From Gordius albopunctatus (taxonomy: Eukaryota), in the NCBI GenBank assembly GCA_964276515.1, contig OZ193910.1:6262001-6326000 (forward strand): DNA of 64,000 bases, given 5' to 3'. The notes under the pieces are model-generated. The model was not told where the DNA came from and searched no databases. It saw only the letters and a list, made by a program, of their open reading frames with translations. Shown piece after piece: positions 4,001-53,514 of the stretch (positions are counted from its first letter, which is position 1; every line of letters begins with the position of its first letter). A program made the position numbers and the translations under genes.

Positions 4001-4488
4001 CGTTCCACCTCGTCTCTTGTAGGCAGGCGATGTGTACCTTTCTTCTTTTTAGCATCTGTGCGACCTCGATGCTCTTCCTCGTCAACGTTCCCACATTCCA
4101 GCACGTAATTCGCATTCTTTCCACAACTAGTTTCCTTAACCGCCTTTGTTGTGAGTTACCCCGCGTTCGTGATGACGCGCGAATTGTGAATTAATTCGCA
4201 CGAAAATAACAAATGTATTAATTAAATAGAAGGCGTTCATAGTAAAATCGCAGACGATTATTTTCGCACGCGGTAAAAAGCGAACAAAATAAGATACAAC
4301 TCATTTTGTATTTTTCGCGCGATGGTGAAAAAATTGAAATTGCATAATTATGATTTGATCAATGATATTCGGGATATACCAATGATATATGATAAATTCC
4401 ATTAAGAGTATAAGGATATTAAAAAAAATGAAGAATTTGAGAAACTAGCCCAAAAATATTTGGTCTCAAGTAATAATATAACTTTAAA

Positions 4489-5007
4489 ATGTTAATTAGC
4501 TTAGGTGAAGATATAAAAGTTAGATGGAAGAATCTCAGAGACACATATATGAAAGAGTTAAATAAGGCAAAAAATCTTAAAAGTGTAAGTGCTTTGACCA
4601 CATCTTATTGGCCTTATTTTACTGTGATGGACTTTTTAAGACCTACCTTAGAACCTAGGAGTCAATGGTCTAGTCTAGATGACTCAATAATGTTTGGAGA
4701 AGATCTATCATTTAACCTAGATAGCATGTGTTCTGATGCTTCAACTAGTTACAAGGAAAATGGTAAATTGATAAAGCTCATATTAATTAATATTCATATA
4801 GAACCTCCAACTCCCATTATTGAAAAGAAAAGTGCTGAAAACAACTTTTTGGAGAAGCTGTTTGACCTTGAAGTCAAAAAGCAGAACAAACCATCTGTCA
4901 TAACTGTAGTTGAAGAAACACTGAACAAAAGATCAGACAAGGGTAGAGAAAAATTTTCTAAAAAAATAATGTTGGAATGCTTAACCTTTATATCTGATGA
5001 TGAATAA
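4489..5007 (+). CDS. Harbinger accessory MADF/Myb-SANT DNA-binding protein (partial, probably spliced)
   Basis: KVRWKNLRDTYMKEL and YWPYFTVMDFL are typical MADF C-terminal helices. Lies inside the Harbinger TIRs. Confidence 0.85.
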   Translation: MLISLGEDIKVRWKNLRDTYMKELNKAKNLKSVSALTTSYWPYFTVMDFLRPTLEPRSQWSSLDDSIMFGEDLSFNLDSMCSDASTSYKENGKLIKLILINIHIEPPTPIIEKKSAENNFLEKLFDLEVKKQNKPSVITVVEETLNKRSDKGREKFSKKIMLECLTFISDDE

Positions 5008-5110
5008 AAATTTATTATATTTGTACAGTTACAAAATGAATTAAAAATTTTTCGATTCTAAAATATTATTATCAAAAAAATTACAAAACAATAGGCAAAT
5101 ATGTTTAGCT

Positions 5111-6200
5111 TCATGGGTGGAGTTTTTCAAAGATTGTGGGTGAAAGAATCCTTGATCTTTTTCTTTTAGAACAGGTGAGATGAGGATTTTCTTTATCAAT
5201 AATCAAGTTGTGTAAAATCACACATGTTTTTATTATTAAATCAGTTGTAGATGTTTTGGTATCCATTGGTCTCCCTAAAATCCTCAATTTGGAGGAGAGT
5301 ATACCAAATGCACACTCAACAAGCCTTCTAGCTCTAGAAAGCCTATAATTAAAGTGTCTGATGGAATTGGTGCCCAAACCTTTAAAGGGCTTCATGATAT
5401 AAGTTTTCAGTGGGTAGGCATCATCTGCCACATACACATGGGGAACTATAATATTTGAGTTTGGCAACTTCTTGTGGGAAGGAATAGGTAATACACCATT
5501 TTCCAATTGTTTAAATAAATTAGAGTTGGAAAATATACCTCCATCTGATTGACCACCTCTACTACCAACATCAACAACTATAAATTTATACCTAGCATCA
5601 ACTACTGCTTGCAAAACTATTGAAAAATAGTGCTTGTAATTATAAAATGAACTTCCAGAATTTGAAGGCTTTTTATCTCACAGTGCTTACCATCAAGGGC
5701 ACCTATGCAATTAGGAAAATTCCATAATTTATAGAAATCTTGAGCTATATTTTCAAAATCTTACAAAGATGGAGATTTCAAATGTATGGGTTGAAAAATG
5801 GAGGATATTGCATTACATGTTTCAATCAAAATATAATGTATAGTTGATATTCCTATCTTATGAGAATAGCTTATTGATGAATAAGAATTTCCACAAGCCA
5901 AATATCTAAATTAAGCTGTGTTACAAAATTTATAATGCTTACCTGATAGTTATCATCAATTTTTCTTTGGGTGAAATGGAATATGCATAGTTTGTTCTCT
6001 GTGATTTTATTTTGGTAGCTATTTTTTCTAATATATAATAAAATGTTTCCTAAAAACTACTGAAAACTAATTAATTTATTATTATACCTTGCTCATCCTA
6101 AGATAATCTAAGAATTTCACTGGAGAGTTCAATTATTTATGAAAAGTAGTGTAATATTCACTCTCTTTCATCCTATTTAGATTGATCTTATTTACATTTT
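5111..6200 (-). pseudogene. Harbinger DDE transposase (HARBI1/DDE_Tnp_4-like), intron-containing, inactivated
   Basis: [41 protein letters not shown] and FNYRLSRARRLVECAFGIL. A 1-nt loss near 5672 and a TAA near 5762 disrupt it. Confidence 0.9.
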
Positions 6201-9191: not shown

Positions 9192-10429
9192 ATCTAAACA
9201 TACTTTCCTCTGTAGGGGTTTATAGGGCACCCGGTCAAAGTCGCAGAAAAAAGCAGCCAAATTGGTCAGAACTAATCAAGGTTGGTCAGAAATTAACATC
9301 TGTTTATTGATATGATGAATTAGAATTTAAGTTTTAACCTATAATTATGCAATATACTTTACTTTTATTCATAATTTATATTATAATAATGAATTTATTA
9401 AGAGAAATACTTTACAGGTGTGACTAGATTGATGTTGAATACTAATACTTCCATAAATACATATAAATGATATTATATTTACAAATTTGGAAATAAATTT
9501 GAGCTTTGATATATTGACTAAATTATAACATATAAATAATCAAGTGGTAATATTTAACATTGCATCTCTTTCTCATTTAAGTTTTTTTATTAATATTTAC
9601 TAAATTATAACATACAAATAATCAAGTGGTAATATTTAACATTGTATCTCTTTCTCTATATTTTAGATAAGAAGATATTGTTTTTAGAAATTTCGATGGG
9701 TCTATTTCACTGTTAGTATAAAGTTCTTTTAAATTATTGATACAAGATTCTTTGTAGATTTCTTTCTTGGATTTTGGGTTTATTGTTTTTCCTTGGTTTA
9801 TTTTATAAATATTTGAGTTAGTTTCTTTATGTATCTTTTTGAGATAATAAATAAATTGATAAATATTGGGATGGGAAGCCTTTACAAGTTTCTTTAGCTT
9901 ATTGTGGAATCCTTCTGTGTGATTATTGGTTCTTGGAAGATTTGTCTCTTCATATCTTCTCCACATTTCATACTTAAATCGGGCTGCTTCACCAACCCAT
10001 GTGTCATCTATATATTTCATATACTTTTCTAATAGGGGATTATTAATTTGCTTTTATTGATGATCTAAAGACAAAAATTGTGATTTTACATCCTGCTCCT
10101 TTAAAAATGGCAAAGCCATTAAGCTTCTTAATGTACTATATATTTTTTTATTGACTTTATAGTCAATGGCTAACCCAATAGACTTAGCTTTTTTGTATAA
10201 AGCTTGAGAATAGTGAAAATAACATCCTAATAACATATAGATTAATTTAATATTAATAAACCTTTTATTTTAATTTGAGGGAATACACTTTTAAGTCCTG
10301 CTATGGCCCCAAGCTCAAAATCTATTTGAACAACTTGTCGGGCAGCAAACAATATATGCAAGGCACCATATGGTTTTTATACCATATATGTATTGTATAC
10401 AGCTAAAACAATTTAAAATTAGTAGAATT

Positions 10430-10993
10430 AACCGGCTCTATGCTACATCAAGAGGGAGGTTGCGCAACTGAAATCAATGCCCGGATTCAAAAAGGATGGC
10501 TTAAATGGCGAAGTATATCCGGTGTAATGTGCGCCAAGAAAATGCCAATATAGTTGAAGAGCAAAGCTTACAAATCCATCGTAAGACCGGTGTTACTCTA
10601 TGGAAGTGAAACATGGGCATTAAACACCACGGAAGGAAAGCTATTACAAGCCACGGAGATGAGAATGATACGGTGGAGCTTGGGGTATACTAAGCTCGAC
10701 CATATGACGAATGACTTTCTCATGACAAAAATGGGTATTCAACCTATGGCGGACATGATTAACGAAAATCGGCTAAGGTGGTATGGGCATATACTAAGAA
10801 GGGACCCGGATGACGTAAATCGAAAAGTGCTAGACATGAAAATACCGGGGAAGAGAGGAAGAGGACGACCCCGTGTCACGTGGAAAAGGCAAGTCGTCGT
10901 CAAGACATGGCACTAACCCGGTCAAGATGGAAGAGACTCATCAAAACAAACCCCACCAATGTGGGACCAAATAACTGATAAAGAAGAAAAAGA
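10430..10993 (+). mobile_element. RTE LINE 3' fragment inserted in the MULE
   Basis: YKSIVRPVLLYGSETWAL..RLRWYGHILRR..GKRGRGRPRVTW followed by an (aag)n-like tail. Same family as 1843-6569. Confidence 0.9.
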
Positions 10994-11816
10994 ATTAACA
11001 TACTTGATAGTAAATTCCTGGTGTCACAAAAAATGTCCCATCTCCAAAAAAGGCGTTTGATTGCCCCAATAAGATTAAATTAGGGAGTGTAGCAAAGATT
11101 AAGATTTCTTGATCCTCCTTATTTTGCGAAAATAAAGATCCATCAATATATGCATATTTAGGGGGCAAAACTAAATTTCTTCTGATGATAGGAATATTTG
11201 GGTGTTGCCTAGGTGAACACCTACTCATTGTTTTCTTAATTGATAATAATGTGGGTGTGGCTGATGGGAATAGTTCTATATCATTGTCTTTTTCCCTTTC
11301 CATCATAACTTGATTATAAATTTTTCTACTATATTTGTTTGGTCCTGCCTTTTTGTCATCTTTTAGGGCATTCTTTGTAATTAATGACTCATAAAAGTCA
11401 TAATCACATTCATGATTATGATTTGTTTGAACTTTTTTTAAATTTTTCTTAATCTTCAGTTTACCATTACACTGAGGTAGACGACATACACAATGTTGGA
11501 CGTCTTTGTAAACACATTTCACTCTGTATAGATATCCAGAATACATCAGAAACTCCCTCCCCATTTCTGATTTTATTCTAATATCTTGATTATCTAAAAA
11601 AATATCTAATTTTTTGAAAACTTAAGTTTACCATCTGTGGATAAAATTTTTGTATTTGTGGTATCCATCAATATAGATGATGCCTCGGACATACCTAATA
11701 ATATAAAATTATAAAACATTTGTTGCAAAAAATACTGAGTTGCATGTCAAGATTTGGTAGTTCATGATTTAAAGGAGGTTCCAAGAATTCATTTTTAATA
11801 TTTTTAATGTTTGAAC

Positions 11817-12488
11817 TAGAGATCTGCAACGGGCCGTTTTTAGAAGGTCGGCCCGCCCGTACCCGTTTTTAAAATTTCAAGGCCCGTCCAAGCCCGTTAA
11901 AAATTTTTTAAAACGAACTCTGCGTCCGTCCTAATTCATCAAAAATTTCACAAAATTTTATTTAATTTTTTGACATATTCATAGAAAGACATCAATAATT
12001 ATCATGTAAAAATAATAAATCATCAACAATTTCTGGTTTTAGGCGAGTTCGCATTTCTTAATTTCGCTCGCTGGTGGCACTCGTAGCCGGTATACATAAT
12101 ATCATATGTGCTAAATGTGCTAATTTAGGATATCTATTAAAGGATAAAATTAATTTTAAATATAATACTTGTCCTCTTTGGCTTTCCACCATTTTAACAG
12201 ATCGAAATCTGTCTCAAACTCAATAGTTTCATCTAAATATTGACTTTTTGTTTTTTCTAATTGTTTTATGTTTAAGCACCTTTGTAACTCCAAGACCTTT
12301 TATATAATCTCTGGTTCGTTTAAGCCCATTTATAAAACTTCAGGTCCGTTCAAGCCCGTTAAAAAAATCTCAGGCCCGCCCGAGCCCGTTCCATTAATTT
12401 TTAGGCCCGTCCGGGCCCGGACCGTTAAAATTTTTATGATACAAAGCCCGTCCGTACCCGCCCGCGGGCCGGCCCGTGCAGATCTCTA
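11817..12488 (-). mobile_element. Non-autonomous hAT element (internal deletion derivative)
   Basis: TIRs tagagatctgca/tgcagatctcta with 8-bp TSD gtttgaac (11809-11816 and 12489-12496). Retains the dimerisation-domain remnant YPKLAHLAHMILCIPATSATSERN. Confidence 0.92.
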
Positions 12489-12866
12489 GTTTGAACTACC
12501 TGTAGGATGTATATAATAACTACTAACTTGCAAGCTTACTTGTGGATGGCATTGTTGTACTACATGTATGATCCTTAGTTATTGCAAATTTTTCATGCTT
12601 AAGGATTCCTTTCCCGCCACATTTCCTTTTTCTACATCTCCAATAGGTCTGATGATTTTTACCCATATTAGCTTTGATGTAAGAATATTGACCAAGGGTC
12701 AGTACCTGCCCACTTCTTGAAGATTTTTTAAATTCTAATTAAACATGCTTTAAAATCTATATTTTGTATCTTACGAACCAAAACCGGGGCCGGAGGCATT
12801 TATTCACGCGTATTTCAATATATATAGAAAAATACAATGTTGCGCGTATATATGAATGTGAAAACG

Positions 12867-12939
12867 AATTTTGGGAAAAGGTTTAGGGATAAAACACAGG
12901 CGATATAATGCTGGAGGGTATCACGTAGGGGAAAAACAA
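12867..12939 (-). repeat. 3' terminal direct repeat (73 bp) of hepadna-like copy 1
   Basis: 70/73 identical to 15648-15720, offset 2781 bp. Confidence 0.95.
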
Positions 12940-12940
12940 A

Positions 12941-12976
12941 CAAGTGATGCCCGGGGGACAGGTATGTGTATTTATA
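12941..12976 (-). promoter_or_regulatory. Putative TATA box and initiator upstream of the 3' repeat
   Basis: Minus strand TATAAA at 12976-12971 and TCACTT with its A at 12945, 31 nt downstream. AATAAA follows at 12804-12799. Confidence 0.55.
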
Positions 12977-13010
12977 CATATTTGCGCAAGGGTTTTGCTA
13001 TTGTTCTAAG

Positions 13011-15029
13011 TCAATTATTTCTACCGGTAATTCGTTTTCCCCAGAAGGAAAGGTCAATCTCGCTCTCGGTTGGTAACCCGTGTTGGAGGATGAAGTCGAT
13101 ATCTTTATGCTCGGATTCGGGGGATTCCGGGATCCAATATCGTGACGGGTTGTCTGCTGGGTTTTGGTCTGTTGGTACCCAGGCCAGGTTGAAGTGGACA
13201 TTGAGCAGATGTTTCAGCCCAAAAGTTTTGACGAAGGTCGCGATGGCTTCTTCGATCGTGGGCGAATTTGAGCACCCTTTCTTGATGACGTAGTAGGCGG
13301 TAGCCGAATCGGTTATTATTTTCGGGTGATTATTGCCTGATAGGTATGATCGTATGTATCCGTAGAGCACGGCTACAGTTTCTGCCAACGTTATATGGTG
13401 CGGTTCTCTCCATTTACAACCAAAAGAGGCTACCGCATTGTAAAAACTGTTAGAGTGGGGACCGTTTTCGTCTAAGATGCCTATGTGCGAGCCTGATGCG
13501 TCCACGTAGACTGTTGTGGACGCCTTAACGTACAGTGGGATCGTGTCGTGTGTTAACCTTAGGATTGCCATGAGTTTCTCCCCGGCTAGAACGCGGTCGA
13601 ACCACGGGGGTTCCTCCTGCGTCAGACTATAGAAACTCGAAAAAAGCTTTGACATCCCTGTCAGATTATAGAAGAGGTAATTAAGTACACCTAGGGCTTC
13701 CAACAGTGTATTCTTGGGGATGTCGCGGCGTAGGGCTATAAAAAGGACGTCGGCTGCGATTCTAAGCCTATCGGCCGTTTTTGGTTTGCACCTGATTGCT
13801 GATACGTCCAGTTTGAGTTCCATACCTAGGTATTCAATACACGCGGTAGGGAGGATGGATGATTTTGCCACGTTAATTGTCATTCCCCATTCTGCGGCTA
13901 GCTCCGCGAGTCGCTCTAAATCCTCCTGTACGTAGTCGAACGAGGGGCTGTAGATCAAGAGGTCGTCGAGATATACGTTATATTTAGACTTCTTTATTGC
14001 TTTTTTGGCTAAGTCGCTGACTACCATCTGCAGGACATAAGGAGAAAATGACGCTCCCATAGGGAGCACATTGTATTCGTAGGGCTTACGTTTCCAAACG
14101 TATCCTAGATATCGTCTGGTGGCCTCGTGGACGGGTATCAAAAAGAAGGCCGCCTTAAAGTCTACTTTGGCCCCGTATCGCGCGGCTACTAGGTGTTTCG
14201 CTGTTAGCGGGATGTTTGCGAGCTTCATTGGTTTGGGTATGAAGTTTTTTGACGCTTCGGACAGGTCCGTGATTACGCGTGCGTCCCCGTTAGCCTTGGT
14301 GATGAAAAAGGTAGCCGATTGGATGAGCAGCTTGTTTGATTTTGAGGTTACTCCCGCTCGCACTAGCTCGGTGAAGAAAGCGGGCGCACCCTTGGAGTAT
14401 CGTTTACTCTTGGGCGGTTTGAAAAGGCCCCCGTTTCTTTGTATGCGCATCGTATCCAGTGCTACCCTGTAGCCGTTTGTGGCTACTTTCCTCGTAAAAG
14501 GCGACATTAGCGTGTGAGGCGTGAGCTTGCTCGTTCTAATGTCCAGGTTGCCCGTTGGCCTTGTAGAGGTTGACGCTTTAGTCCACCCGAAGAGCATTTT
14601 GTGTGCTTGTAACAGGGGTCGGATTGGTCCCGACCCCACGTCCCGACCGAGGGAATCTTCGGAGTCCGAGATGCGTTGCTCGGATTCGGACGGAAGCGGT
14701 GGCGAATCTATTTGTCGTGGTGATGTTTGCGGCGAATTATCCGGCGAACTCGGATCGTCGTCGGCGGGCGGAGAGAAGATTATCCGGCACGTCTACCTAA
14801 GAAAGAATGCGACATTCTTAAGCCACGGCTGGAAGACGATATCTTTCTCTCCGTGAGGGGTCGGTAAGCCATCGGGCCCGAACTCCCATTTGTTCGCGAT
14901 TTTCTTTAGGCGCTTTCTAGCTCCTGGCAGGGGGCGCGCTCTTTTTGAGGTTGCGGCCCTTAGATGTGCCTCTGCCCCTGCCAGCTGCCGGAAAAAACTG
15001 TTTGCGCTGCGGATCCCGTTTAATGTCAA
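13011..15029 (-). CDS. Pol of hepadna-like element: basic N-domain, Ser/Pro spacer, RT, RNase H (542-aa open part plus in-frame upstream extension across one TAG at 14793-14795)
   Basis: RT: FFITKANGDARVITDLS, VDFKAAFFLIPVH, LPMGASFSPYVLQ, YLDD, INVAKS, IEYLG. RNase H: VYVDAS, HITLAE, ITDS, WVPTDQNPADNPSR. ORF 14793-15029 is in the same frame, and copy 2 has GAG (Glu) at the TAG position. Confidence 0.88.
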
Positions 15030-15637
15030 TATTTTGCCATTTCATCTCTTTCAACCATTCAGCGTCTTGTGAAGCCGCCGTCTGCCAGTTGAATTTTATG
15101 GCCAGACACATCTTTTTTGAGCTGATCATTGATGGGGATGAGCTCCTCCAGTGTCATGGGAATCCGCGTTAGCTTCGCGCAATGTATGGCGAACCGGGCT
15201 TCGTGCTTGTCCCGTTTCGCCCCTTTACAGTCCGGGTCAGCGATTAGGTCCTCGAGGCCTTTCCTATGCAGGTTGATGTCGTCGAGAACCGATTCGACTG
15301 TACGAGGCGGCTCCGGGGCCGGAACGATCTGCATTGTTGATGGTGGCAATTCGGGGGTCGAAGGTGTGGTAACGTTTGCCGTTGGCTGCCCTAAGCTGCT
15401 TCTCTGGAGTAGCTGTTGTAGGGCTTCTGTTTAGACCCTCTGCGCCTCGGCTTGTTTGTTCAGCGCTGCTACGGTTGTCTCTTGGATCTTGGCTATCCTT
15501 GCTATAAGCCCCTCCAGTGGGTTATCCGAACCCGATCCTGTTTGGCTTGTGTATGTCGTGGGTGATGTCATAGAGTTATCTGGGGTGAGTAAAATAAAAC
15601 TGTGTTGATCTACCGTTTGGGATCTCGTGTTCACCAT
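14917..15637 (-). pseudogene. ORF1 of hepadna-like element: putative core/gag-like protein, ~240 aa, basic RG-rich C-terminus
   Basis: ORFs 15431-15637 and 15059-15349 share a frame with one TAA between them. An extra A near 15115 shifts into 14917-15129. The reconstructed protein aligns with the copy 2 ORF 44735-45181 (APEPPRT, KGLE-L-ADPD, CLAIKFNW, WLKEM, QFF-AAGRG). The capsid function is inferred. Confidence 0.7.
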
Positions 15638-15647
15638 TAACTATATA

Positions 15648-15720
15648 AATTTTGGGAAAAGGTTTAGGGATAAAACACGGTCGATATAATGCTGGAGGGT
15701 ATCACGTCGGGGAAAAACAA
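15648..15720 (-). repeat. 5' terminal direct repeat (73 bp) of hepadna-like copy 1
   Basis: Matches 12867-12939 and ends 10 nt upstream of the ORF1 ATG at 15637. Confidence 0.95.
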
Positions 15721-16533
15721 TGGGTCAAAAAGAAAAGAAGTTTCAAGGATAAAGATACAGGCCAGGAAAATCAAAAACCTATAAAAGTCCCAGCAAAATC
15801 GATACTACAGAAAAAAACAGAGAAATAGGATTTTCTCCCGTAGAATGGAAATTTCTCCATTGTAAACCCAATTCCTCCCTGTAATCGCTAGAAATTATAT
15901 TCCCGCGCAATTATTGTCTTGTTAACAATTATTGCCGAATACTTCAATTATATACCATCTCCGGAGTTGGATTATAGTTATTTGAGTGAATAAACTAGTA
16001 TTTGGAGTATCACAGATTTGGTGAATAATCGTACAAATAAATAATCCCCAGATAAGAAACGATAAATAATTCCCCCTTTGGGCGGAGGATGTAAAAGTGG
16101 TGCCCAAGCCTTATAAGGGCTGGTTCCCTTTTTGAAAGTTTCTCATGGATATGACACCTATCTTCCCTATTTAGACGCTCTGCTTGAATAGGGGGTTTAC
16201 TCAAAATTCCACCTCTAGGAATTTGATCTGCAAGCACTTGGCGAAGACTGGAAATGAACTTTGTTTGTCTGGATAGGAGCGATCTAAACTATTTTCAAAC
16301 AAAACAATCTCTTGTTTTTTTATTAAAGGCTTGTCCTCCCTCTTTCATATTTTTTAAATACTTGACTTACGAAACTTACAGCTATTTAGATGTTACACAT
16401 TTAACAATTTTTATGTTAGAAATCGCATGGGTTTAAACCCTTCCCTTTTACGCCAAGTTTGGACATCTTCGGGTGAACATACATACATATATATTATCAT
16501 ATTTTTCAAATAATTCAATATAAACGCGTTGTT

Positions 16534-19500
16534 ATGGCTCTACAACTTCTAAAATTTATTGAGTCTTCATTTTTTGTAGGTGATATCACATATTCACTTT
16601 GTATCATCGCTGTCATAGCTATGTTTACCATAGTATATCTTATTTCTATTATGGGCACTAAAGAACGAACATTTGAAGAAGCCAAGGCAGCACAAAATAA
16701 CGGTGTTTATAAGAAAAAGGGTTTCTGGCTTTTATCTTATATTGTTCCAAGAACCATTCATAAAGAAGTCGTAAAAGCCAAATTTTTAAAGGAAAAAATG
16801 AAATTAAATATGGTGAGCAAAGGCAACCATAAAAATTTTAGCTATCAGACCAAGGATAAACAAAAAATTAACAGTTCATCTAAGATTATAAAAACCTTTG
16901 CAGATGGAGGGAGGAATCTAGATAAATTAGGTGTTATATCAGATGGTCCAAAAAGCACAATCAAATATGATAAAAACATTTCACAACATGATATAAGTAG
17001 CACAAAATTTCCAAAAAATAGGAAATATGGTTCATTAAGCAAGGCTGAAAATTTTTCAGCAGATGATGATACTGCTCAAGCAAATTCACTAAGCAACGTC
17101 AACTCAAATACTTGTCAAAATAATTCACCATCAATCCTATTTGAAAACCCTATAGAAATTGAAAGCAGTAGTTGTAATGAGTTTATAGAACAAAATGAAA
17201 ACAATAAAAATATTACAGCAAATAATATAAAAGCCAATAAAAAACATAAAAAAAGAAATAAAAAATGCAAAAATCTATTACTTGGCACTCATGGTAAAAT
17301 ATTATTTTAACATATAATTATTAACAATATGAATATAGAGGATGATAATCAGAAAGGAAATTTTTCTATTGTGTTTTCAGACCATAACCATGTTGATGGT
17401 AATATATTATTTAAATTATATTTCAGGTATTTTATGCACCCTTGCCTTTAACATATTTTTGACTACTAGAATTTATAAATAAATGCACAGGCAGAAATAT
17501 AGCTTGTGAAATCATATAGCATAAATAAGAGTCCCAAATTAATGTCATAAATTAAAAACCAATATATCTTTAACTGTGCAACTCGTTACATTAATGTGCT
17601 AATAAATGGCTACTTAATATAACCGCAGAGCTTACTAATATTTACTAAATATTTCTCCATCAAGAGTTTTTTGATTTTAGTAGGTTTTTTGTTTAAAAAT
17701 TCATTCATGTGTTTATACCTTTATATTTTTCAATTGTGGTCAAGCATTTTATTATGTTTAATTTTTATATCTATTACGTTTTTATTCTCAATATTACCTA
17801 GTTTCTTTTGTATGTCAACTTTGTCATTTAATATTACAGAAGTTTCCTAAAATCATATGCCGCTTCATTTTTTTACGTAGTTTTCAAGGCCTCCGAATTA
17901 AAAATGTAAAAGCGATATTTTGATTAAAAATATACCATATAAATAGTGTGATGCCGAATTTCTCAATTGAAAGCTTATATATAGGTATTTTTATGGGCGT
18001 AGCCAGATTAGAGGGGGGCAATAATGATTCGAGGAGGGGCAAAATGATTATTTCATGAAATTTTGGCCATAATATTAATAAAATTCGACAAATTTAGAGA
18101 GGGGCAGCTGCCCCTCCCTGCCCCCCCCCCCCTTGGCTACGCCCATGGGTATTTTATTTTTGATCTTAGCCACGAATTATTTGTAAAATTAATGGCTTAA
18201 ACGTGTAGAACTTGCCTAGAGTTTTCAATGTATAAAAATTATCCAGGTTCTAGGGTGTGTGCAGAAGTTGCCGAAGAAGCTAATCAAATACCGGATGCAC
18301 CCGAAGCCTTAGAAGAGCGTTTAATTAAGGAATGTACCAACTTACCCCGAGGCAAATTGTTACTACTTTTAAACACCCTCATACAGGACAAAAAAATTGA
18401 TGCTAAAGAGATTAAAGTAATCGCGTAGTCTACTCACGCTCGTGCTATAATAACACGCGCCACAACAAACAATCGATATTATAAATATTACTGATCTGCT
18501 GCCTTTACCAAATAATCGTTATTATCTACCAACTTTTGACACTTAAAAGAACGGTCGATAAATGTTATTGTCCCAGCCATTTAGACCTTTTTTTATTTGC
18601 TAATTTAGGTTGCTAAATTATTTTTATTACCATTAATATATAATTTAAAGCTAAAACTTTAGATTTTTAATGGTAAATTTAGTTAGTACAACAGCTGAAG
18701 GATTCTATGCAAAAGCACGTTGATGAGTTGGAGGCGAAAGTTCACAAATCTCAGTCTCTGATGGAATATGCAAATATGCAGAACCAAAAACTGAGGTTGA
18801 TTCCCTTTTCAAAACAATAACTTATGGTTTATTTCATGGCCAGTGAGCATTGGAATTAGAAGGGGGGATAATGATTTAGGGAGGGCCAAAATAAATATTT
18901 TTAGAAATTTTAGCCATACTTTTAATAAATTTCAACAACTTTTTGGATTTAGAGGGTGGCAGCCGCCCCTTCCTGCCCCCCCCGGCTATACCCATGGTTG
19001 ATTAATAAGAAATTTAATATACATTGATGTTTATAAGTCTATAAATTTTTAAGGTGTTGCAAATTGAGTTTGCCGACATATCAATAATAATCCCTGGATT
19101 TCCTGATGTGTCTGTTTTTTAAGAATACTAAATTTCTTTATACTACAAATCTATTTAATTTTTATAAATATTTAAAAAAATCTTAACGCACATAAATGCA
19201 TTCTGTATGCATATACTATTTATCCTCTGCAAAACCTTCTTAAACTATTAAACTTGACTTAGAAAATAAAAAAAATATCCTTGTTTTTGAATACCATGGG
19301 GATTATATCCCTGAATTTATGTTTTTTTTGGAAATATCGTATTTACATATATTAATTTCTTATTTGTCAAGTATTTTTTCATTTAAATTAGTCACAATTG
19401 ATTGATGCATTTATAATTTTCGCTTTAAAAATTAAATCTAAAATATTCGCTAAAAAATAAAAACACACGAAATAGGTAATACAAAAAATACTCACATTTT

Positions 19501-30642: not shown

Positions 30643-42334
<11,692 letters not shown>

Positions 42335-42779
42335 TAAAATTAAAATTTAGAATACCATGGCGTTCTATTGTAGTTAGAATGTAAAACATGAATATTTATG
42401 TATGTTTATGCGAAGCGACACTTAACAATAATAGTCTTTTTTCATGTATGCCATGGGGAGGCAGGAATAGCAGTGACCTAGCTAGGTGAGGACCAAGGAT
42501 AGGCCCCCCCCCCAAGGGCATAATCCTTACCACTTCAGTCCACCCCCCCCCCAAGAAAAAACCTCGGGGCCCTTTGGCCCCCAAGCATTTATTTAATTTA
42601 TTAAATATCAATATAATTAATATCTTTATTAGTTTTTAAATTATATTTTTTTGGTTTAGCTAACCGAAATATTTAATTACCACTTTGTTCTTTATTAACA
42701 TGGATTGAAAAATAGCAAACAATTAAATCATAGGTAATTTTTTAAAGCCCTCAGCTCTAAACAATAGCTTAAATCAAAT

Positions 42780-45295
42780 ATATTTCTGCGTCCTCCTCAG
42801 GGATTTCGCTGTCCCAAAAATCGAGGTCGATGTGTTCGTCGTTTGGTTCTAGAGGGATGAAGTCCAAATGTTGGGCTGCGTGTTCCGGGACGGGATACCA
42901 GGCTCTCGAAGCCTCATCGCTGGGTTAACGGTGGTGCTAATCCCTTTGATGTTGAAATGTATGGCTATGAGCGCTTGTAGTCCGAAGACCGTGACGAAGG
43001 CTCCTAACAATTCTTCTACGATAGGAGAATTAGATCCTCCCTTTCGCAAGACGTAGTATGCAGTGGCCGAGTCTGTTTGAATTTGTGGGTATAGATGTCC
43101 CTCCCTACGGGCCAGGGTGTACCCGTAGCAAGCCGCGAGCGCCTCCGTAAGGGTGATGTGACCGTGACCTGGCCAAGTCCATTTCACTTTTTTGGCCGCC
43201 TTTTCGAAGGTTATTGAGGACAGCTGTCCGTTCCAGGCTATACCAATGTGCGAATTCGATGCATCGACTGCGATGGTGGTGGTATGCTGTTTGTGTAGCG
43301 GCATGGTGTCCGTGATGGAGCGCATGATCTCTTTCAGCTTGTTGGTTGCTATTATCCGGTTGAACTCCGGGGCGTGAGGGTTTGTCAATGCGTAAAACGG
43401 TGAGAAGAGCTAGGTCATCCCTGTTAAATTATAGTAGAAGTAATTCAGAGCGCCCAGCGCTTCCAAGAGAACGTTTGTGTCTGGGGCGTTCCTATCGTCC
43501 ATGCACAAGTATAAGATATCGGCTGCTAGCTTGAACCTTGTTATGGTGTTGGGCAGGATCTTTACTGACCCGACGTCCAATCTTAGTCGCATCCCCAGGT
43601 AGTCTATGTGTTGTTCTGGTAGGATGCTCGATTTGGCCGTGTTGATAGTCAGCTCCCAGTCCTTAGACATTTCGACCAGGCTTTCCAAGTCTAGTTGTAC
43701 GTTATCGCAATCGTCGCTGAAGATTAGTAGGTCATCTAGGTAGACGTTATACTGGGACCGGGTGACTGCTTTCTTTGCGAAGTCGTAGACTATCACCTGG
43801 AGAACGTATGGTGAAAACGTAGCCCCCATGGGCAAGACGTTATACTGGTATAGTTTTTTCTTCCAACCGTACCCGATCTACTTTTTGGTTATCGTGTGTA
43901 TCGGGATCGAGAAAAACGCGGCCTTTAAGTCGATTCTTTCCGCGTATCTAGCCCTCGAGAGTTGTCTGGCTGTTAGCGGTATCGTGGCCAAATTCAGCGG
44001 GTGCGGCTTGAAATTGCGTGATGCTTCCAATAGGTCAGTGATAACGCGTGCGTCCCCATTGGCCTTGGCGATGAAGAACGTGGAGGATCGGATCGCCAGT
44101 GCTTGAGTGCGGGAAACCACCCCTGCTGCCTCCATCTCCGTGAAGTACGCTGGCGAACCCTTCGAGATCCTTCTCCGCTTCGGGGGCCCGAATAGCCCTC
44201 TGTTTTTGACAATCTTGGGTCCGTCTAAGTGAGGCCTGTATCCCTCGAAAGCCACATTCAGAGTAAATCGTGACATTAATGGATGTGGCTTCAGTCTCGA
44301 GGTTCGGATATCCAGGGGACCGGTAGGCGCCGTGGTGACGTTGGGGGTTTCCCGGGTAAAGAGCAGCTTGTGTGCTCGCAAGACTGCACAGACACTCGTG
44401 GAGCCAGTATCCCCGCCGAGGGACGTAATAGCTGAGTTTATTCTGGTGGCCACCTCGACTGGTAGTTGATTATGTGGAGGGTGAGCTGGCGAGTCGGGTG
44501 GCGTGGTGTGGGAAGGCTCCTCGACGGGAGGCACTTCATTTGAAGGAGAGAATATTATCCGGCGTGTCTCCCTTAAGAAGGAAAGTATCTGCTACAACCA
44601 GGTGGGAGAGCGATTCTCTGCTTCACAGGTGGGACGGGGTAAGCCCGAAGGCACGATGTCCCAGTTGTTTGCGAGGTTGGAAAGGCGCTTTCGAACACTG
44701 GGCAGGGGGCGCGCTCTTCTCGACGTTGTGGCTCTTAAAACCGCCTCTCCCCCCTGCCAGCTGCTAGAAAAAACTGGCGCCGCGCTTGATAGGTAACTTT
44801 TACGTCCTTAAAGCGCATTTCTTTCAACCATGATGCATCGGTGCGGGTCGCGGTTGCCCAATTAAATTTTATCGCGAGGCACAAAGTTTTCAATTGGTCG
44901 TCAATTGGTATTAGGTCCTCCACCGGTTGCTCCGGATGGCATAGCTTAGCTGTGTGCATGGCGTACTTCGCTTCGTGTTTGTTCCGTTTCGCCGTTTGAG
45001 CGTCGGGGTCAGCTGTGAGCTCTTCAAGACCTTTAATATGGAGATGAATATCCTCCCAGACCGATTGCGAGGTCCTGGGAGGTTCTGGCGCTAGCAGGAT
45101 CTGCACGGTCGATGGCAGCCCTGACCCGGATGCTTGAGTAGCCCCCGGCAGTGATGTGGGGCTACTTGCATTTACTGACATCTTTGCGAGTTTTCGCTGC
45201 TTTCAACGTCCGCCCTCTGAGATATTGGTGTTAAGGTTCCGAACAGGTTGCGTCTAGGTGTTTTTAGTGAGTTAGACCTAGTAATTGGCTTAAAA
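42780..45295 (-). mobile_element. Hepadnavirus-like retroelement, copy 2 (diverged, degenerate, no terminal repeats found)
   Basis: ORFs 43878-44534, 43410-43835 and 42849-43388 are in one frame (IDLKAAFFSIPIH, LPMGATFSPYVLQ, YLDD, VDAS, HITLTE, QTDS, NPA[D]EASR after a 1-nt deletion). ORF1 44735-45181 is homologous to copy 1. Confidence 0.85.
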
Positions 45296-48145: not shown

Positions 48146-48411
48146 TTTAACACTGATTATATAACAAATTTTAGGCTTTTGAAATGAAAATTGTATCCAG
48201 CAAAGTTTGTCTATTTTCCATTTTCAATTGTTAATAATTATTTTGTGATTATATTGAAATAAATTTTTATATTTTGCCTTTATAAAGCTTAAGATTGATA
48301 ACTCTCAATAAATTTGCAAATAAATACATTATAAACACAAGCATAGTAAAATTTAAGAAGGGAGAGACAGAGAATTTTATAATGGGAAATATAGGTCATT
48401 ACTTTTCATAG

Positions 48412-49202
48412 TGTAAGGATCTGTAACCTTTCCATGCGGGGATTAGTATTATAACTACCATTTGTATTATATAAAAGGTTGATTATCAATTTTGTAACGT
48501 ATTGACGAGAATATATATTGTGTGTTCAGCTGTTTGTATTATTGATATCAAGATATATGTATTTTTCTTTGTGACTAAATTACATTATTTGGCGTACAGT
48601 TTTAGTCAGCATATTTAGGATATTAACTAAACAATTGGTCGTCACGCGGTCCGCAGGCAGGACAGCCGGCAGCGATAAGGCAAACTAGAGCCTTTTGCAG
48701 TGGATGCAGAAGCTGGCACCGAATGCCGATGTGTAGGTGAGGAATCTTGTCCAGGCAAGCAAGGCAGGAGAGGACGGTACCGCCGGTAGAATCGGTAGTG
48801 TCGGTGGTTTCGATAGCGCCGGCAGTAACGTTGACAACGGCGGAGCCTGTACGTGTGGAAGTGGTTACAATGGACACCAGTCAGGTCGTGGTCAGCCCGG
48901 AGGAAGAGATGACGTTATTAGGAAATACTCCAGGGCGGGACAGCACGGACCTGGTGGTTCCTCAATTTGAAAGAATGAGGTGTAAGGATCTGTAACCTTT
49001 CCATGCGGAGATTAGTATTATAACTACCATTTGTATTATATAAAAGGTTGATTATCGATGTTGTAACGTATTGACGAGAATATATATTGTGTGTTCAGCT
49101 GTTTGTATTATTGATATCAAGATATATGTATTTTTATTTGTGACTAAATTACATTATTTAGCATACAGTTTTAGTTAACATATTTAGGATATTAAGTAAA
49201 CA
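48412..49202 (+). mobile_element. TRIM-like miniature LTR retroelement
   Basis: 222-bp TG..CA LTRs (48412-48633 and 48981-49202), 5-bp TSD catag, TGG-starting PBS after LTR1, PPT gaaagaatgagg before LTR2, and a 347-bp GC-rich interior. Confidence 0.92.
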
Positions 49203-49939: not shown

Positions 49940-51100
49940 TGCTATGCAATTTATGGGCTCGTTTTTTGGTGTCCGTCCGTTACCCTCCAATGTATTCACA
50001 CCGGTTTTCTGACTTGTAGTTTCGAGTTCAATCCCCGGAGAGGACAAAAAATTAAATTAATATTTTGTTCTTGTTAATACCATGGATAATAGGACTTTTT
50101 GACCTTCCGCTGGCTACTGACCAATGAAAAAAATGACCATTGGCCAAATAAATCGAAATTTTTTTTTCGTTTTTGAATTGGTTGACATTGATAATTACCC
50201 TATGTCCTCCACTACAAGGGCCTATGCCTCTACTGATATGGGTCCCAGTGCCCCTACAAAGGCTTATGCCTCTATTAATGTGGGTTTGAATCCCGGCGAA
50301 CGTTCTGAATTGCTGGTTCTATACCCGGAGAGGGCAAAATTTTTATTTTTTTTCAAATTAAATTAATATATTGTTCTTGTTAATACCATTGATAATATGA
50401 ATTTTTGACCGTCCGCAGGCTACTGACCAATGAAAAAATGACCACTGGCCAGATAAATCGAAATTTTTAATTTTTCGTTTTTGAATAGTTTAACATTGAT
50501 AATTACCCTATGCCCTCCCCTACAAGGGCCTAATTAATGTGGGTTCGAATCCCGAAGAAGGCAAAATTTTTATATTTTTTTAAATTAAATTAATATATTA
50601 TGACTTTTTGACCTTCCGCTGGCTACTGACCAATGAAAAAAATGACCATTGGCCAAATAAATCGAAATTTTTTTTTCGTTTTTGAATTGGTTGACATTGA
50701 TAATTACCCTATTTCCTCCACTACAAGGGCCTATGCCTCTACTGATATGGGTCCCTGTGCCCCTACAAAAGCCTATGCTACTATTAATGTGGGTTCGAAT
50801 CCCGGAGAGGGCAAAATTTTTATATTTTTTTAAATTAAATTAATATATTATGACTTTTTGACCGTGCCCTGCCTACTGACCAATGGAAAAAATGACCATT
50901 GGCCAAAATGTGAATAGGAATTTTTTTCGTTTTTTTAAACTCGTATGTATTTATAGACCGTCTCTGGGTACTGACCAATGGAAAAAAATGACCATTGGCC
51001 AAAATGTGATTCGAAATTTGTTTTTCGTTTTTTTTACTTGTATGTATTTATAGACCGTCTCTTGGTACTGACCAATAAAAAAATGATCATTGGCCAAATT
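49940..51100 (+). repeat. Tandem array of ctactgaccaatgaaaaaaatgaccattggccaaa units with B-box-like ggttcgaatccc
   Basis: About six recurrences (~50115, 50420, 50624, 50873, 50969, 51066) with variable unit length. Starts with the atgcaatttatgggc terminus. Confidence 0.85.
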
Positions 51101-51477
51101 TTTTTTAATTAAAGGCTAAAATTTCAAAATGCTCCTCCCAAAATCATTATAAAATACTGAACCAAATTCTTGAATATTTGGTGATCAAAAAACGCCTATT
51201 GTTGAAGTGTTTTAAATCAGTGGTTCTTAACCTTTTTATACACGCGGCCACCCCCGCCCCCAAATATTTTATAATTTTTTTGCGCCCCCCCCCCATTTTT
51301 TCCATAATAATTTATATTTGTTAAATTATCTATAATATATTGATTTTCTATTATTGTTTCATTTTATTATATAATGAACATAAAACTAAACTTTATTATT
51401 TCAATATCTATATAAATAACATAAAAACATCTACCTTTTTAATACCAGCATGGCGTGAGTGGTTATATCGAACGCCT

Positions 51478-53514
51478 TGTAAACAGGAGGTTCCAATTCT
51501 TGTTCACTTTTGGCACAGATGATTATATCGTCTGCAAAAATCATTGCCCAAGAAGCTTCCTCGCCCAAATCCTTGGTAATATTATCCATTATCATTACGA
51601 ATAGGAAGGGACTAAGAGCTGAACCTTGATGAACTCCAGTGTTAATGGCAAAGCCCTTTGTAGTCCACACCGATGTTCTAACGTACGTTCTATTTCCCTT
51701 GTACATATCTTTTATTGCTCTGACGTATACTTCTGGCACATTGTTGTCTTCAAGACATTTCCAAACTAAATTACGAGGAACTTTATCGAACGCTTTTTCT
51801 AGATCGATGAAACACATGTGCAAATCCTCTTTCCTATATTTAAACCGTTCCAGTAATATTTTAACACTGTTTTGAATTGATTATCTCGAATTTGAACCAA
51901 ACTCCGAAGCCGTTTTTCGATCACTTTTTCCCACACCTTGAAAGTGTGACCTCATAAGCTTTATCCCTCTGTAATTGTTGCAATACTGAATGTCCCCTTT
52001 CATCTTGTATATCGAGATCATGTAGCTATCCCTCCACTCGTTAGGCATTTTACCCGTTTTCAAGATATTGTTGAAAAGGTTGGCGAGGAATTGTGCACCA
52101 GTATTGCCTAACGCTTTGAAGCCCTCTATTGATATATTGTCGGGTCCAAGAGCTTTTCCTGACTTTAGTTTACCCATAGCAACTTTGACTTCCGTTTTAG
52201 TGATCCAGTCCGCTGTGTATAATTCTCCTATTGTATTTTCCTGGTTAGTGTCTTCGACTACAGGCCCCTTTTCAATATATAAATCGCTATAATAGTCGAA
52301 CCATCTTTGTAGTATATGGCTGTCGTATGTTAGTATTTCTCCCTTTTGACCCTTGATTAGCCGGCATTCTAGGTAATCTTTAGAATTTCGGGCCCTTGAC
52401 TTTGCGATTTTGTAAATCAATCTTCCTCCTTCCCTTGAGTTTTACCTTTATATCGTCGTACACCTTGCTTTTAGCTTTCGCTACGAATTTTTTAGCCGAC
52501 CTTTTAGCTACTTGGTAAGCTTGCTTATCATTACTATCCTTGCTTTTATACCAAACTTTGCACAATCGCTTCTTTTCCTTGATACATTTTTGCACTTCTT
52601 CATTCCACCACCACGTCTCTTTAACAATTATTTTAGTGGGATTGCTTTCACCTAGTATTTGTCGTCCCGTTTTTCGCATTGTGGCAGCTATACCATTCCA
52701 TTGATCCTCACATGGATTATTTTCCTTGAATTCAGCATGTTTAATTACTTGTTCCTGAAAATGTTGAATATTTTCCTTTAGTTTCCTCCATTGTATAGTA
52801 GCGGCTGCTCTTTGTACCTTTTGCCCTTTAATATAAAGTCCATCACCAACAGCTTGTGTTGGCAGGCCAATATTTCACTCGGTATTACCTTAACATTTTA
52901 AAAATACTTTAAGTGCGCTCTGTTTATTGGAAAGAAATCTATCTGAGTTGTACGGCTGCCACTTTTGTACGTTATAAGATGTTCCTGTCTCTTTTTGAAA
53001 AAGGTATTTCCTATTGCTAGGTCAAAAGCTTGAGCAATTTCTAGAGATTCCGTACCTCCTTCATTTCTTAGGCCATAACCCCGACCACCGTGATTTCTTT
53101 CAAATTCTCCCCTTGATTTGCCCACGTGTCCATTGAGGTCCGCACCGATAATTATTATTCCCTCTTTACCGAATTGGGATAGAAAATCTTCAAGTTCCTT
53201 CCAAAAACACTCTTTTTCCGTCTCAGAGCATCCACTTTGAGGGGAGTATGCTGATATAACGTTTATCGTAGTAGATTTATAACAAAGCTGTATCGCCATA
53301 ATTCTGTCATTGATTCTTTTAACGTCAACGACAGTTTGCTAAAATTCTTCCGATAGCACTATACCGACGCCATCCCGGTGAGTTTCTGTACCGTAAAAAT
53401 AAAATTTGTATCCGTCCCCTATGTATTTTACTTTTTGGCCCTTCCATTTGGTCTCTTGTATACAAGCGATATCAATTTTTCTCCTCCTTAGAACGTCTGC
53501 CAATTCTCTGCTCT
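51478..53514 (-). mobile_element. Second RTE-family LINE fragment (APE plus RT)
   Basis: IACIQETKW, ISAYSPQSG, GADLNGHVG, GKALGPDNI, NYRGIKL, FIDLEKAFDKV, GVHQGSALSPFLF and FADD. Frameshifted. Confidence 0.93.

Follow-up and report, generated by a model that had tools for sequence, protein, structure and literature searches.

A compact RT-RNase H element with terminal direct repeats in a horsehair worm genome and its possible relation to hepadnaviruses

We analyzed a 64,000-nucleotide window of the Gordius albopunctatus genome (contig OZ193910.1). The 2.78-kb element in this window is a decayed chromosomal copy from a multi-copy family, and both of its coding frames, ORF1 and Pol, are broken. 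Judged by its RT-RNase H, the element likely lies within the grade that also yielded the hepadnaviruses (the HEART grade), before or without the acquisition of a terminal protein. Our best explanation, for which the arguments on either side are about evenly balanced, is an element of pararetrovirus style that lacks a terminal protein, likely uses an RNA with terminal redundancy for its replication, and would be captured into chromosomes by DNA repair.

The origin of hepatitis-B-like viruses from retroelements is an open question, and HEART elements are the proposed ancestors. The locus supplies a complete unit including its two ends, together with a candidate promoter and a second gene that was under selection, and a nematomorph genome that has been sequenced contains relatives. 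For a member of this grade that has neither integrase nor terminal protein, gene content, termini, priming, and the route of insertion thus become directly testable.

The unit, its flanks and its relatives

The features of the unit are summarized in Table 1. The two copies of the terminal repeat (R) are identical at 70 of 73 nucleotides, are spaced 2781 bp from start to start, and flank ORF1 and the overlapping RT-RNase H frame, in agreement with the original prediction. GC content was 0.48–0.53 over 13001–15000 and 0.25–0.42 elsewhere in the window, except for the bin 15001–16000 (0.46) and a second copy, so that the unit is GC-rich as had been claimed. The 3' limit proposed at 12775 was unsupported as an element end. 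A poly(A) signal was absent from within R, a point against the pararetrovirus-style reading.

Table 1 Features of the element and its surroundings in the window.
Feature	Position	Strand	Remarks
5' terminal direct repeat (R), 73 bp	15648..15720	(-)	ORF1 ATG begins 10 nt after R
3' terminal direct repeat (R), 73 bp	12867..12939	(-)	
ORF1, ~240 codons	14917..15637	(-)	ATG 15637, stop 14917-14919
Pol frame, 676 codons	13011..15041	(-)	One in-frame stop 14793-14795
Stem-loop, ORF1/Pol overlap	14914..14994	(-)	Just past T-run; kept in second copy (44689-44770); candidate frameshift or packaging signal
Non-coding segment	12940..13010	(-)	TATAAA 12976-12971; TCACTT 12947-12942, 31 nt downstream; predicted promoter directly upstream of R
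Candidate primer site, 12 nt	15701..15712	(-)	Exact complement to 3' region of vertebrate tRNA-Trp; post-hoc lead
AATAAA	12799..12804	(-)	3' flank; candidate part of element; 12823-12847 covered by one contig per run
Separate high-copy repeat, truncated piece beginning TG	15719..16156	(-)	Based on contig depth and loose ends
Second diverged copy	42770..45202	(-)	ORF1 44735-45202; Pol frame from 44807

The 5' R adjoins the truncated high-copy repeat with a 2-nt overlap, and the usual continuation of that repeat is absent from the window. No target-site duplication was seen at the 2.78-kb copy. R itself was considered as a target-site duplication and rejected, as the upstream repeat family is not continued in R and one other family copy carries R joined to ORF1 (a contig matching 15224–15716 with 55 differences). 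No contig linking the 3' end across R back to ORF1 was found among the 15 of 352 joints listed or among the 12 listed in a second survey, both of assembled contigs; this speaks against the pararetrovirus-style reading.

The repeats bear on the main rival to the pararetrovirus-style reading, a recombinase-less offshoot of VIPER-, Ngaro-, or PAT-type elements that kept Gag and RT-RNase H, forms circular cDNA, and receives a recombinase in trans, with R corresponding to A1/A2. We consider this rival rather unlikely, at little more than half the weight of the preferred reading. The A repeats of VIPER (83–414 bp) are described as occupying the same positions as R, and VIPER RNase H as grouping with hepadnaviruses (PMC6681497); active insertion would also account more easily for many copies. 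The expected B1/B2 pair was not detected, as the segments beside the 3' R aligned at chance level (70 of 500 shuffles scored equally high). The unit has only an A-type repeat pair, with neither inverted terminal repeats with an ICR nor an A1/B1-A2-B2 structure.

The second copy lies 30 kb away in the window, was missed in the original prediction, and is approximately 55% identical in Pol. Its Pol frame has three in-frame stops and shifts frame near 42915. No terminal repeat was found in it, and a search for R-like sequence remained at chance level, which counts against the pararetrovirus-style reading. Between the two copies, pS was approximately 0.8 and pN 0.22–0.38 over the RT, thumb, and RNase H, and the values for ORF1 were 0.77 and 0.26, respectively, indicating that the copies, which represent two subfamilies, diverged under purifying selection. 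Because the second copy has the same compact ORF1/Pol layout, these values show that an arrangement free of a recombinase is of long standing and has been subject to selection.

Further co-linear copies were found in public runs, and the R-ORF1 junction and the Pol-to-TATA order were common to other copies. No RNA run was listed among those containing the family. The closest proteins were XP_065317776.1, XP_065315139.1, and CAK9296138.1 of the horsehair worm Gordionus (37–41% identity), which belong to the same family as the element (clade support 100/100) and are annotated merely as uncharacterised. No relatives were found in viral contigs by protein search or RT pattern. Scanning metagenomes for the pattern yielded 38 loci, of which most were LTR-type RTs or matches by chance; four (L021, L023, L047, and L052) are members of the P0018 family. 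The 10 ORFs scanned from three of these four loci, which are fragments, gave no recombinase match.

Coding content

The Pol frame agrees in length and overlap with the predicted frame of ~670 codons. It comprises, in order, a conserved N-terminal segment, a variable spacer, a DIRS-like pre-RT region, an RT (YLDD), and an RNase H. The first Met appears only at codon 149, and Pol would be expressed via a frameshift or a non-AUG start inside the ORF1/Pol overlap. The folding energy of the hairpin in this overlap was unexceptional (z −1.6 and −0.7).

RVT_1 was the sole Pfam domain above the cut-off. The absence of integrase, tyrosine recombinase, protease, and endonuclease, claimed in the original prediction, was borne out by the Pfam scan of 6/6 minus-strand frames of the two copies; the lack of any recombinase remnant in these frames argues against the VIPER/Ngaro-type rival. 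The element also has no methyltransferase. All four Pol motifs quoted as hepadnavirus-like were found in the frame. They are not diagnostic, as PMG....P occurs in 19 and N[PLI]AD.[PF]SR in 23 of the best 150 matches, some of which are DIRS-type elements bearing a methyltransferase. The pre-RT region matched DIRS-type proteins with an hhalign probability of 96.5, which favors the VIPER/Ngaro-type rival.

No PF00242 (terminal protein) match was obtained at E up to 10, and the N-terminal profile of Pol matched those of 8 hepadnaviral N-termini with an hhalign probability of 0.3. The structure model of Pol residues 1–223 had a pLDDT <50, so a very remote terminal-protein fold could escape it. The variable spacer precedes the T3-like helix instead of following it, and the active site is YLDD, not YMDD, in both copies and the Gordionus relatives.

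ORF1 has the predicted length of ~240 codons. It is not intact, having an in-frame stop at 15431–15433 and a frame change near 15110, and the description of a preserved candidate capsid gene does not hold for this copy, in which Pol is interrupted as well. Its layout consists of an N-terminal coiled coil, a Pro-rich linker, a conserved all-alpha domain, and a basic GRGRG tail. No match was found in Pfam, PDB sequences, or the ESM Atlas, and a word-indexed homolog search gave nothing among longer proteins. Comparison with five orthohepadnaviral cores was not significant (shuffle p 0.19–0.98; hhalign probability 0.07), nor was that with 2 avian core N-terminal pieces. The fold model was all-alpha with poor confidence (pLDDT 48.8) and gave generic matches, with no hepadnaviral core among those listed, an absence that carries no weight. 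ORF1 likely encodes a capsid or Gag-type RNA-packaging protein; its coiled coil and basic tail also fit the Gag of the VIPER/Ngaro-type rival. By eye, ORF1 echoes core motif II and the FF..GRGRG tail of published proto-nackednaviral cores.

These echoes would also fit if the element were a true nackednavirus or proto-nackednavirus that was endogenised, used protein priming, and had a terminal protein and a hepadnaviral core diverged past detection. The unit size falls within the 2766–3105 bp given for nackednaviruses (PMC5604429), the layout is that of a core overlapping P with no long overlapping frame across Pol, and the conserved N-terminal segment and variable spacer of Pol fit as well. 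The terminal-protein searches, the YLDD active site, and the position of the spacer speak against this explanation. The repeats showed no epsilon-like fold above chance level (z 0.07 and 0.27), no DR1/DR2 pair was present where expected, and other unannotated elements sit nearer the hepadnaviruses. We regard it as improbable.

Phylogenetic position

Four trees were constructed, three of them including hepadnaviruses and none containing a labelled HEART, nackedna-, Ngaro, or VIPER sequence. The family was placed outside core DIRS-1 in all four, including the tree without hepadnaviruses, and a branch with full support divided its RT-RNase H from that of Ty3/gypsy in 4/4. In three trees, the family grouped with hepadnaviruses and unannotated, methyltransferase-less short RT-RNase H elements (supports 91, 97 (starred), and 93/92). 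This hepadnavirus grouping is of moderate support: the two trees built under a mixture model left the deep grouping unstarred, long branches are involved, and several other unannotated elements branch nearer the hepadnaviruses than the family does. In AU tests on a group picked after viewing a tree, forced grouping with core DIRS-1 was rejected (p-AU 0.0055), which also counts against the VIPER/Ngaro-type rival, and forced grouping with hepadnaviruses was not rejected (p-AU 0.34).

Similarity searches were mixed. HBV P had the best TM-score among the named viral folds in BFVD (0.38 versus 0.26–0.29 for caulimoviruses). In the ESM Atlas it ranked 12/30, and the two top clusters were from Euglenozoa, the home of VIPER/TATE, in favor of that rival. 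The best solved structures were Ty3 and foamy-virus RTs. Bit scores were 7–39 for hepadnaviral Pols versus 71–97 for unrelated DIRS-type matches, and the RNase H, which likewise aligns with DIRS-type as the rival would have it, gave E 6e-17 with DIRS-type profiles and 2e-8 with hepadnaviral ones. Word-indexed homolog searches returned almost only Ty3-type RTs (19–34%). Kuafuorterviruses were ruled out by eye on the AMGMPGSE and KLADD motifs. The hepadnavirus-like character originally proposed is supported in part: the trees (at moderate support), the rejection of core DIRS-1, and the HBV P TM-score speak for it, and the motifs, terminal protein, pre-RT region, RNase H, and core do not.

Non-coding signals, proposed replication and comparison with known systems

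TCACTT in the predicted promoter is a sequence that we take to be initiator-like, based on the initiator consensus. The TATA box is present only upstream of the 3' R, and R begins 6 nt past the predicted initiator, which fits a circularly permuted genome. The segment is covered by 17–21 variant contigs per run. Only one internal repeat of at least 12 nt was found (13 nt, near 14689 and 13120), outside the non-coding region. The tRNA-Trp complement matches at 12/12 positions in the 5' R and 11/12 in the 3' R, with a vertebrate tRNA as the reference; this gives a weak hint of a primer derived from tRNA-Trp.

The same signals could belong to a reduced LTR retrotransposon with short LTRs (a 71-bp U3 and a 73-bp R/U5) that lost its 5' U3 and uses an integrase in trans. 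The U3-R order at the 3' end, the tRNA-Trp match, and the top solved structures agree with this. However, the tRNA match falls within R instead of following it and has no TGG end, no remnant of protease or integrase and no TG...CA ends were found, and the branch separating the family from Ty3/gypsy largely refutes this explanation, making it very improbable.

The element encodes solely ORF1 and the overlapping RT-RNase H. In the pararetrovirus-style reading, transcription of a putative circular DNA from the predicted promoter downstream of Pol would give an RNA with redundant termini, and copies would reach chromosomes via host DNA repair without an enzyme of their own. It is doubtful, though conceivable, that the family represents a lineage of animal pararetroviruses, so far without a name, that lack both an envelope and a terminal protein and have ~2.8-kb circles, a remote homolog of the hepadnaviral core, a DIRS-grade RT-RNase H, and priming by a host tRNA-Trp fragment instead of a protein. 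If so, this lineage would be the missing intermediate from before protein priming arose in hepadnaviruses; genomes related to those of horsehair worms would contain its fossils, and its relatives would lie among the numerous short metagenomic contigs that lack annotation.

LTR retrotransposons and Ortervirales differ from the element in having protease, integrase, TG...CA LTRs, and a PBS after the 5' LTR. DIRS-1-type elements share the pre-RT helix, the GY motif spacing, and RT and RNase H profile similarity; unlike them, the element has no recombinase, methyltransferase, or inverted terminal repeats, and the AU test rejects the grouping. VIPER/TATE, Ngaro, and PAT share a Gag-like ORF1, an RT-RNase H without protease or integrase, and direct-repeat copies at the 5' terminus and close to the 3' terminus, whereas the element lacks a tyrosine recombinase and B repeats and is only 2.8 kb long; the Ngaro and PAT RT signatures in a published alignment also differ by eye. 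Proto-nackednaviruses and nackednaviruses resemble the element in size (~2.8–3.4 kb), a core overlapping P, no envelope frame, a TATA near the terminal redundancy, and association with invertebrates (rotifers). In contrast to the element, in which none of these features was detected, they have recognisable core motifs, a terminal protein, YMDD, DR1/DR2, and in most cases epsilon. With no terminal protein, YLDD, and no significant core match, the element falls outside the definition of both nackednaviruses and proto-nackednaviruses.

HEART elements (Gong and Han 2018) are described as RT elements in invertebrate chromosomes that fall on the same side of the tree as hepadnaviruses (PMC12691608, PMC12440569, PMC11551314); few, mutated sequences are known, and their mode of mobilisation is given as unresolved (PMC12440569). 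Published alignments contain seven HEART RTs, all from Ixodes ticks, with PFG and YIDN or HLDN, whereas the element has PMG and YLDD (compared by eye). The element is like HEART in being an invertebrate chromosomal RT element that falls, at moderate support, on the hepadnavirus side.

Layout and coding content of the element

We confirmed the compact unit that the original prediction had described between 73-bp direct repeats 2781 bp apart. The terminal repeats (R) are identical at 70 of 73 positions, and the GC-rich minus-strand segment (0.48-0.53 over 13001-15000) carries ORF1 and an overlapping Pol frame. ORF1 is broken in this copy by a stop codon and a frame change. Pol contains one in-frame stop, and its first Met does not occur before codon 149. 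The RT aspartates (D294, D359, and D360) and the RNase H residues (D514, E554, and D578) are all present, and RVT_1 was the sole Pfam match above the cut-off in the element. The three minus-strand frames were scanned both in this copy and in copy 2, a second, diverged copy, and neither yielded a recombinase, integrase, protease, endonuclease, or methyltransferase; the original prediction had noted no motif for the first four in this copy. A reduced LTR element seems very improbable.

Features of the element and its surroundings in the window
Feature	Position	Strand	Remarks
5' repeat R	15648-15720	-	
3' repeat R	12867-12939	-	
ORF1	15637-14917	-	~240 codons; starts 10 nt past 5' repeat
ORF1 stop	15431-15433	-	
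ORF1 frame change	near 15110	-	
Pol	15041-13011	-	676 codons; overlaps ORF1 end
Pol stop within frame	14793-14795	-	
TATAAA	12976-12971	-	35 nt past Pol stop
AATAAA	12804-12799		one contig per run covers this flank
Truncated repeat piece	15719-16156		possibly an LTR; far more abundant than element, depth up to ~90x unique flank; sharp TG end at 16156 with variable flanks; usual continuation absent from window
Copy 2	~42.8-45.2 kb	-	~430 bp upstream of most 5' exon-like ORF of TRPC-type gene
MADF protein and DDE_Tnp_4 transposase	4477-5677	opposite strands	Harbinger/PIF-type transposon remnant
FLYWCH-domain fragments (10998-11621, 12526-12738) and downstream ORF	9625-12738		flank 3' side of element; likely MULE-type transposon remnants
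277-codon ORF	16477-17310	+	N-terminal hydrophobic segment, Lys/Asn-rich tail; single-copy depth; no Pfam match; likely host exon
TRPC-type channel gene exons	37350-42346	-	TRP_2 domain (E 2.5e-17), ankyrin repeats
Local duplications (292 nt 100%, 223 nt 96%) and complex short-repeat array	38244-39367, 48411-49202, 50024-51113		
Decayed non-LTR retrotransposon	51434-53338	-	endonuclease and RT pieces

Copy 2 and the wider family

Copy 2 has the same ORF1/Pol overlap, and its Pol is 52-56% identical to that of the first copy. It is decayed, with three in-frame stops and a frame change close to the Pol end. A terminal repeat was not found there. Synonymous sites between the copies are near saturation (pS ~0.8), and pN was 0.22 in RT, 0.26 in the ORF1 domain, 0.35-0.38 in the pre-RT region, thumb, and RNase H, and 0.51 in the spacer. 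Pol codons 42-90, upstream of the first Met, are also constrained (pS 0.63, pN 0.32), so a frameshift or a non-AUG start likely lets Pol begin within the overlap. In this region both copies keep a stem-loop preceded by a T-run; its folding energy is ordinary.

Two public runs of one study contain this stretch, and their contigs were aligned to the window. Co-linear contigs were 84-89% identical to it over 12968-14352, 14908-15355, and 15224-15716, and the two stop codons of this copy were absent from most of the contig depth. Summed depth in run X1, which is not a copy number, was 745-1270 over Pol versus 163-203 in the unique flank. The element belongs to a family. Among 1.84 billion representatives, only three proteins were close (37-41%), all from the horsehair worm Gordionus (XP_065317776.1, XP_065315139.1, and CAK9296138.1). 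The TRPC channel exons at 37-42 kb show the host to be an animal; it is presumably a nematomorph or a similar invertebrate.

Ends and mode of insertion

An initiator-like TCACTT lies 31 nt downstream of TATAAA. The 3' repeat starts 6 nt past this predicted start, a point equivalent to where the element begins at its 5' end. This order, with Pol-TATA-R on one side and R-ORF1 on the opposite side, is what opening a 2781-bp circle with a 73-bp redundancy would produce. The 5' end adjoins a truncated foreign repeat with a 2-nt overlap, and no target-site duplication was seen at the element, which is consistent with capture by repair. Two results count against the circle and repair reading: no contig joint across the repeat was present among the 15 of 352 joints listed or the 12 in another comparison, and no poly(A) signal was found inside R. 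We infer a compact pararetrovirus-style mode of working, to which we give an even chance.

A B1/B2 pair flanking the 3' repeat was rejected, as 70 of 500 shuffles scored as high. Neither an epsilon-like fold nor a DR1/DR2 pair in suitable positions turned up in the element. Within R, 12 nt match the complement of vertebrate tRNA-Trp, where shuffled windows give an expectation of 0.04 each. We take this match as a lead only, since it was spotted post hoc, with many tRNAs to choose from, and the TGG end is missing.

Phylogenetic position and comparison with known systems

Trees were built from 17 hepadnaviral Pol stretches (nine cut N-terminally by the locus edge) and 161 search proteins; 22 of these 178 sequences, with no usable RT motif or too short, were left out. 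The methyltransferase (MT) label is based on a motif search, not Pfam. The RT-only tree (FastTree, 156 rows) placed the clade of the window and Gordionus with hepadnaviruses and nine methyltransferase-less elements (support 91). The RT-RNase H tree (62 rows) put the clade with these partners again, in a starred group of 27 rows (97), and so did its mixture-model counterpart (40 rows), in an unstarred group of 17 rows (93/92). Forcing the clade with ten core DIRS-1-type rows, a group picked after seeing the tree, was rejected (p-AU 0.0055); forcing it with hepadnaviruses was not (0.34), which is no proof of a clade. When hepadnaviruses and the search protein P0115 were removed, the family still grouped with methyltransferase-less elements (86/90). 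The phylogeny rejects a core DIRS-1 grouping and, for RT-RNase H, places the family on the hepadnavirus side with moderate support only; its main gap is that sequences labelled as HEART, nackedna-, proto-nackedna-, Ngaro, or VIPER are absent from every tree.

The methyltransferase-less partners are unnamed proteins on contigs of 1.4-4.1 kb, and in a scan of 30 proteins three of them (P0026, P0050, and P0078) exceeded the Pfam threshold for the hepadnaviral C-terminal domain. The search proteins P0017, P0018, P0026, P0046, P0050, P0078, P0089, P0115, and P0130 and the metagenome loci L021, L023, L047, and L052 represent a broad unnamed RT-RNase H group without methyltransferase and with low-complexity N-termini, which joins hepadnaviruses in three trees and deserves a survey in its own right.

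The motifs originally likened to HBV polymerase are shared with other elements (PMG....P in 19 and N[PLI]AD.[PF]SR in 23 of the 150 best hits). Hepadnaviral Pols matched the element Pol at 7-39 bits versus 71-97 for other matches. Its N-terminal region resembled DIRS-type pre-RT regions (probability 96.5) rather than terminal protein (0.3), and its RNase H was closer to DIRS-type (E 6e-17) and methyltransferase-less (1e-16) proteins than to hepadnaviruses (2e-8). In Foldseek against viral proteins only, HBV P ranked third and had the top TM-score among named matches; an unnamed 634-aa protein led the list. Euglenozoa clusters, which we guess to be VIPER/TATE, led in the ESM Atlas, where HBV P ranked 12 of 30. 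A recombinase-less VIPER/Ngaro relative is a possible but rather unlikely alternative.

ORF1 was predicted, at low confidence, to be all-alpha and had no significant fold or sequence match in the databases searched; against five orthohepadnaviral cores it scored no better than shuffles. By eye only, it resembles the published cores of proto-nackedna- and nackednaviruses at motif II and in the basic tail. We regard a true proto-nackednavirus as improbable.

The literature compared comprised PMC12691608, PMC11551314, PMC12440569, PMC6681497, PMC5604429, PMC12241316, PMC7555719, PMC5029493, and bioRxiv 2023.06.26.546503. None of the papers listed by our searches describes an element of this kind from a nematomorph, and a search of supplement S4 of PMC12691608 did not find 'Gordionus'.

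The interpretation as an envelope-less pararetrovirus or HEART-like family is partly supported: the hepadnavirus-side position stands at its moderate support, and membership in Blubervirales does not. The element has neither a detectable terminal protein nor the YMDD of that order, its active site being YLDD, and neither the recombinase nor the termini of the DIRS order were found in it. In gene content and termini, it could match HEART.
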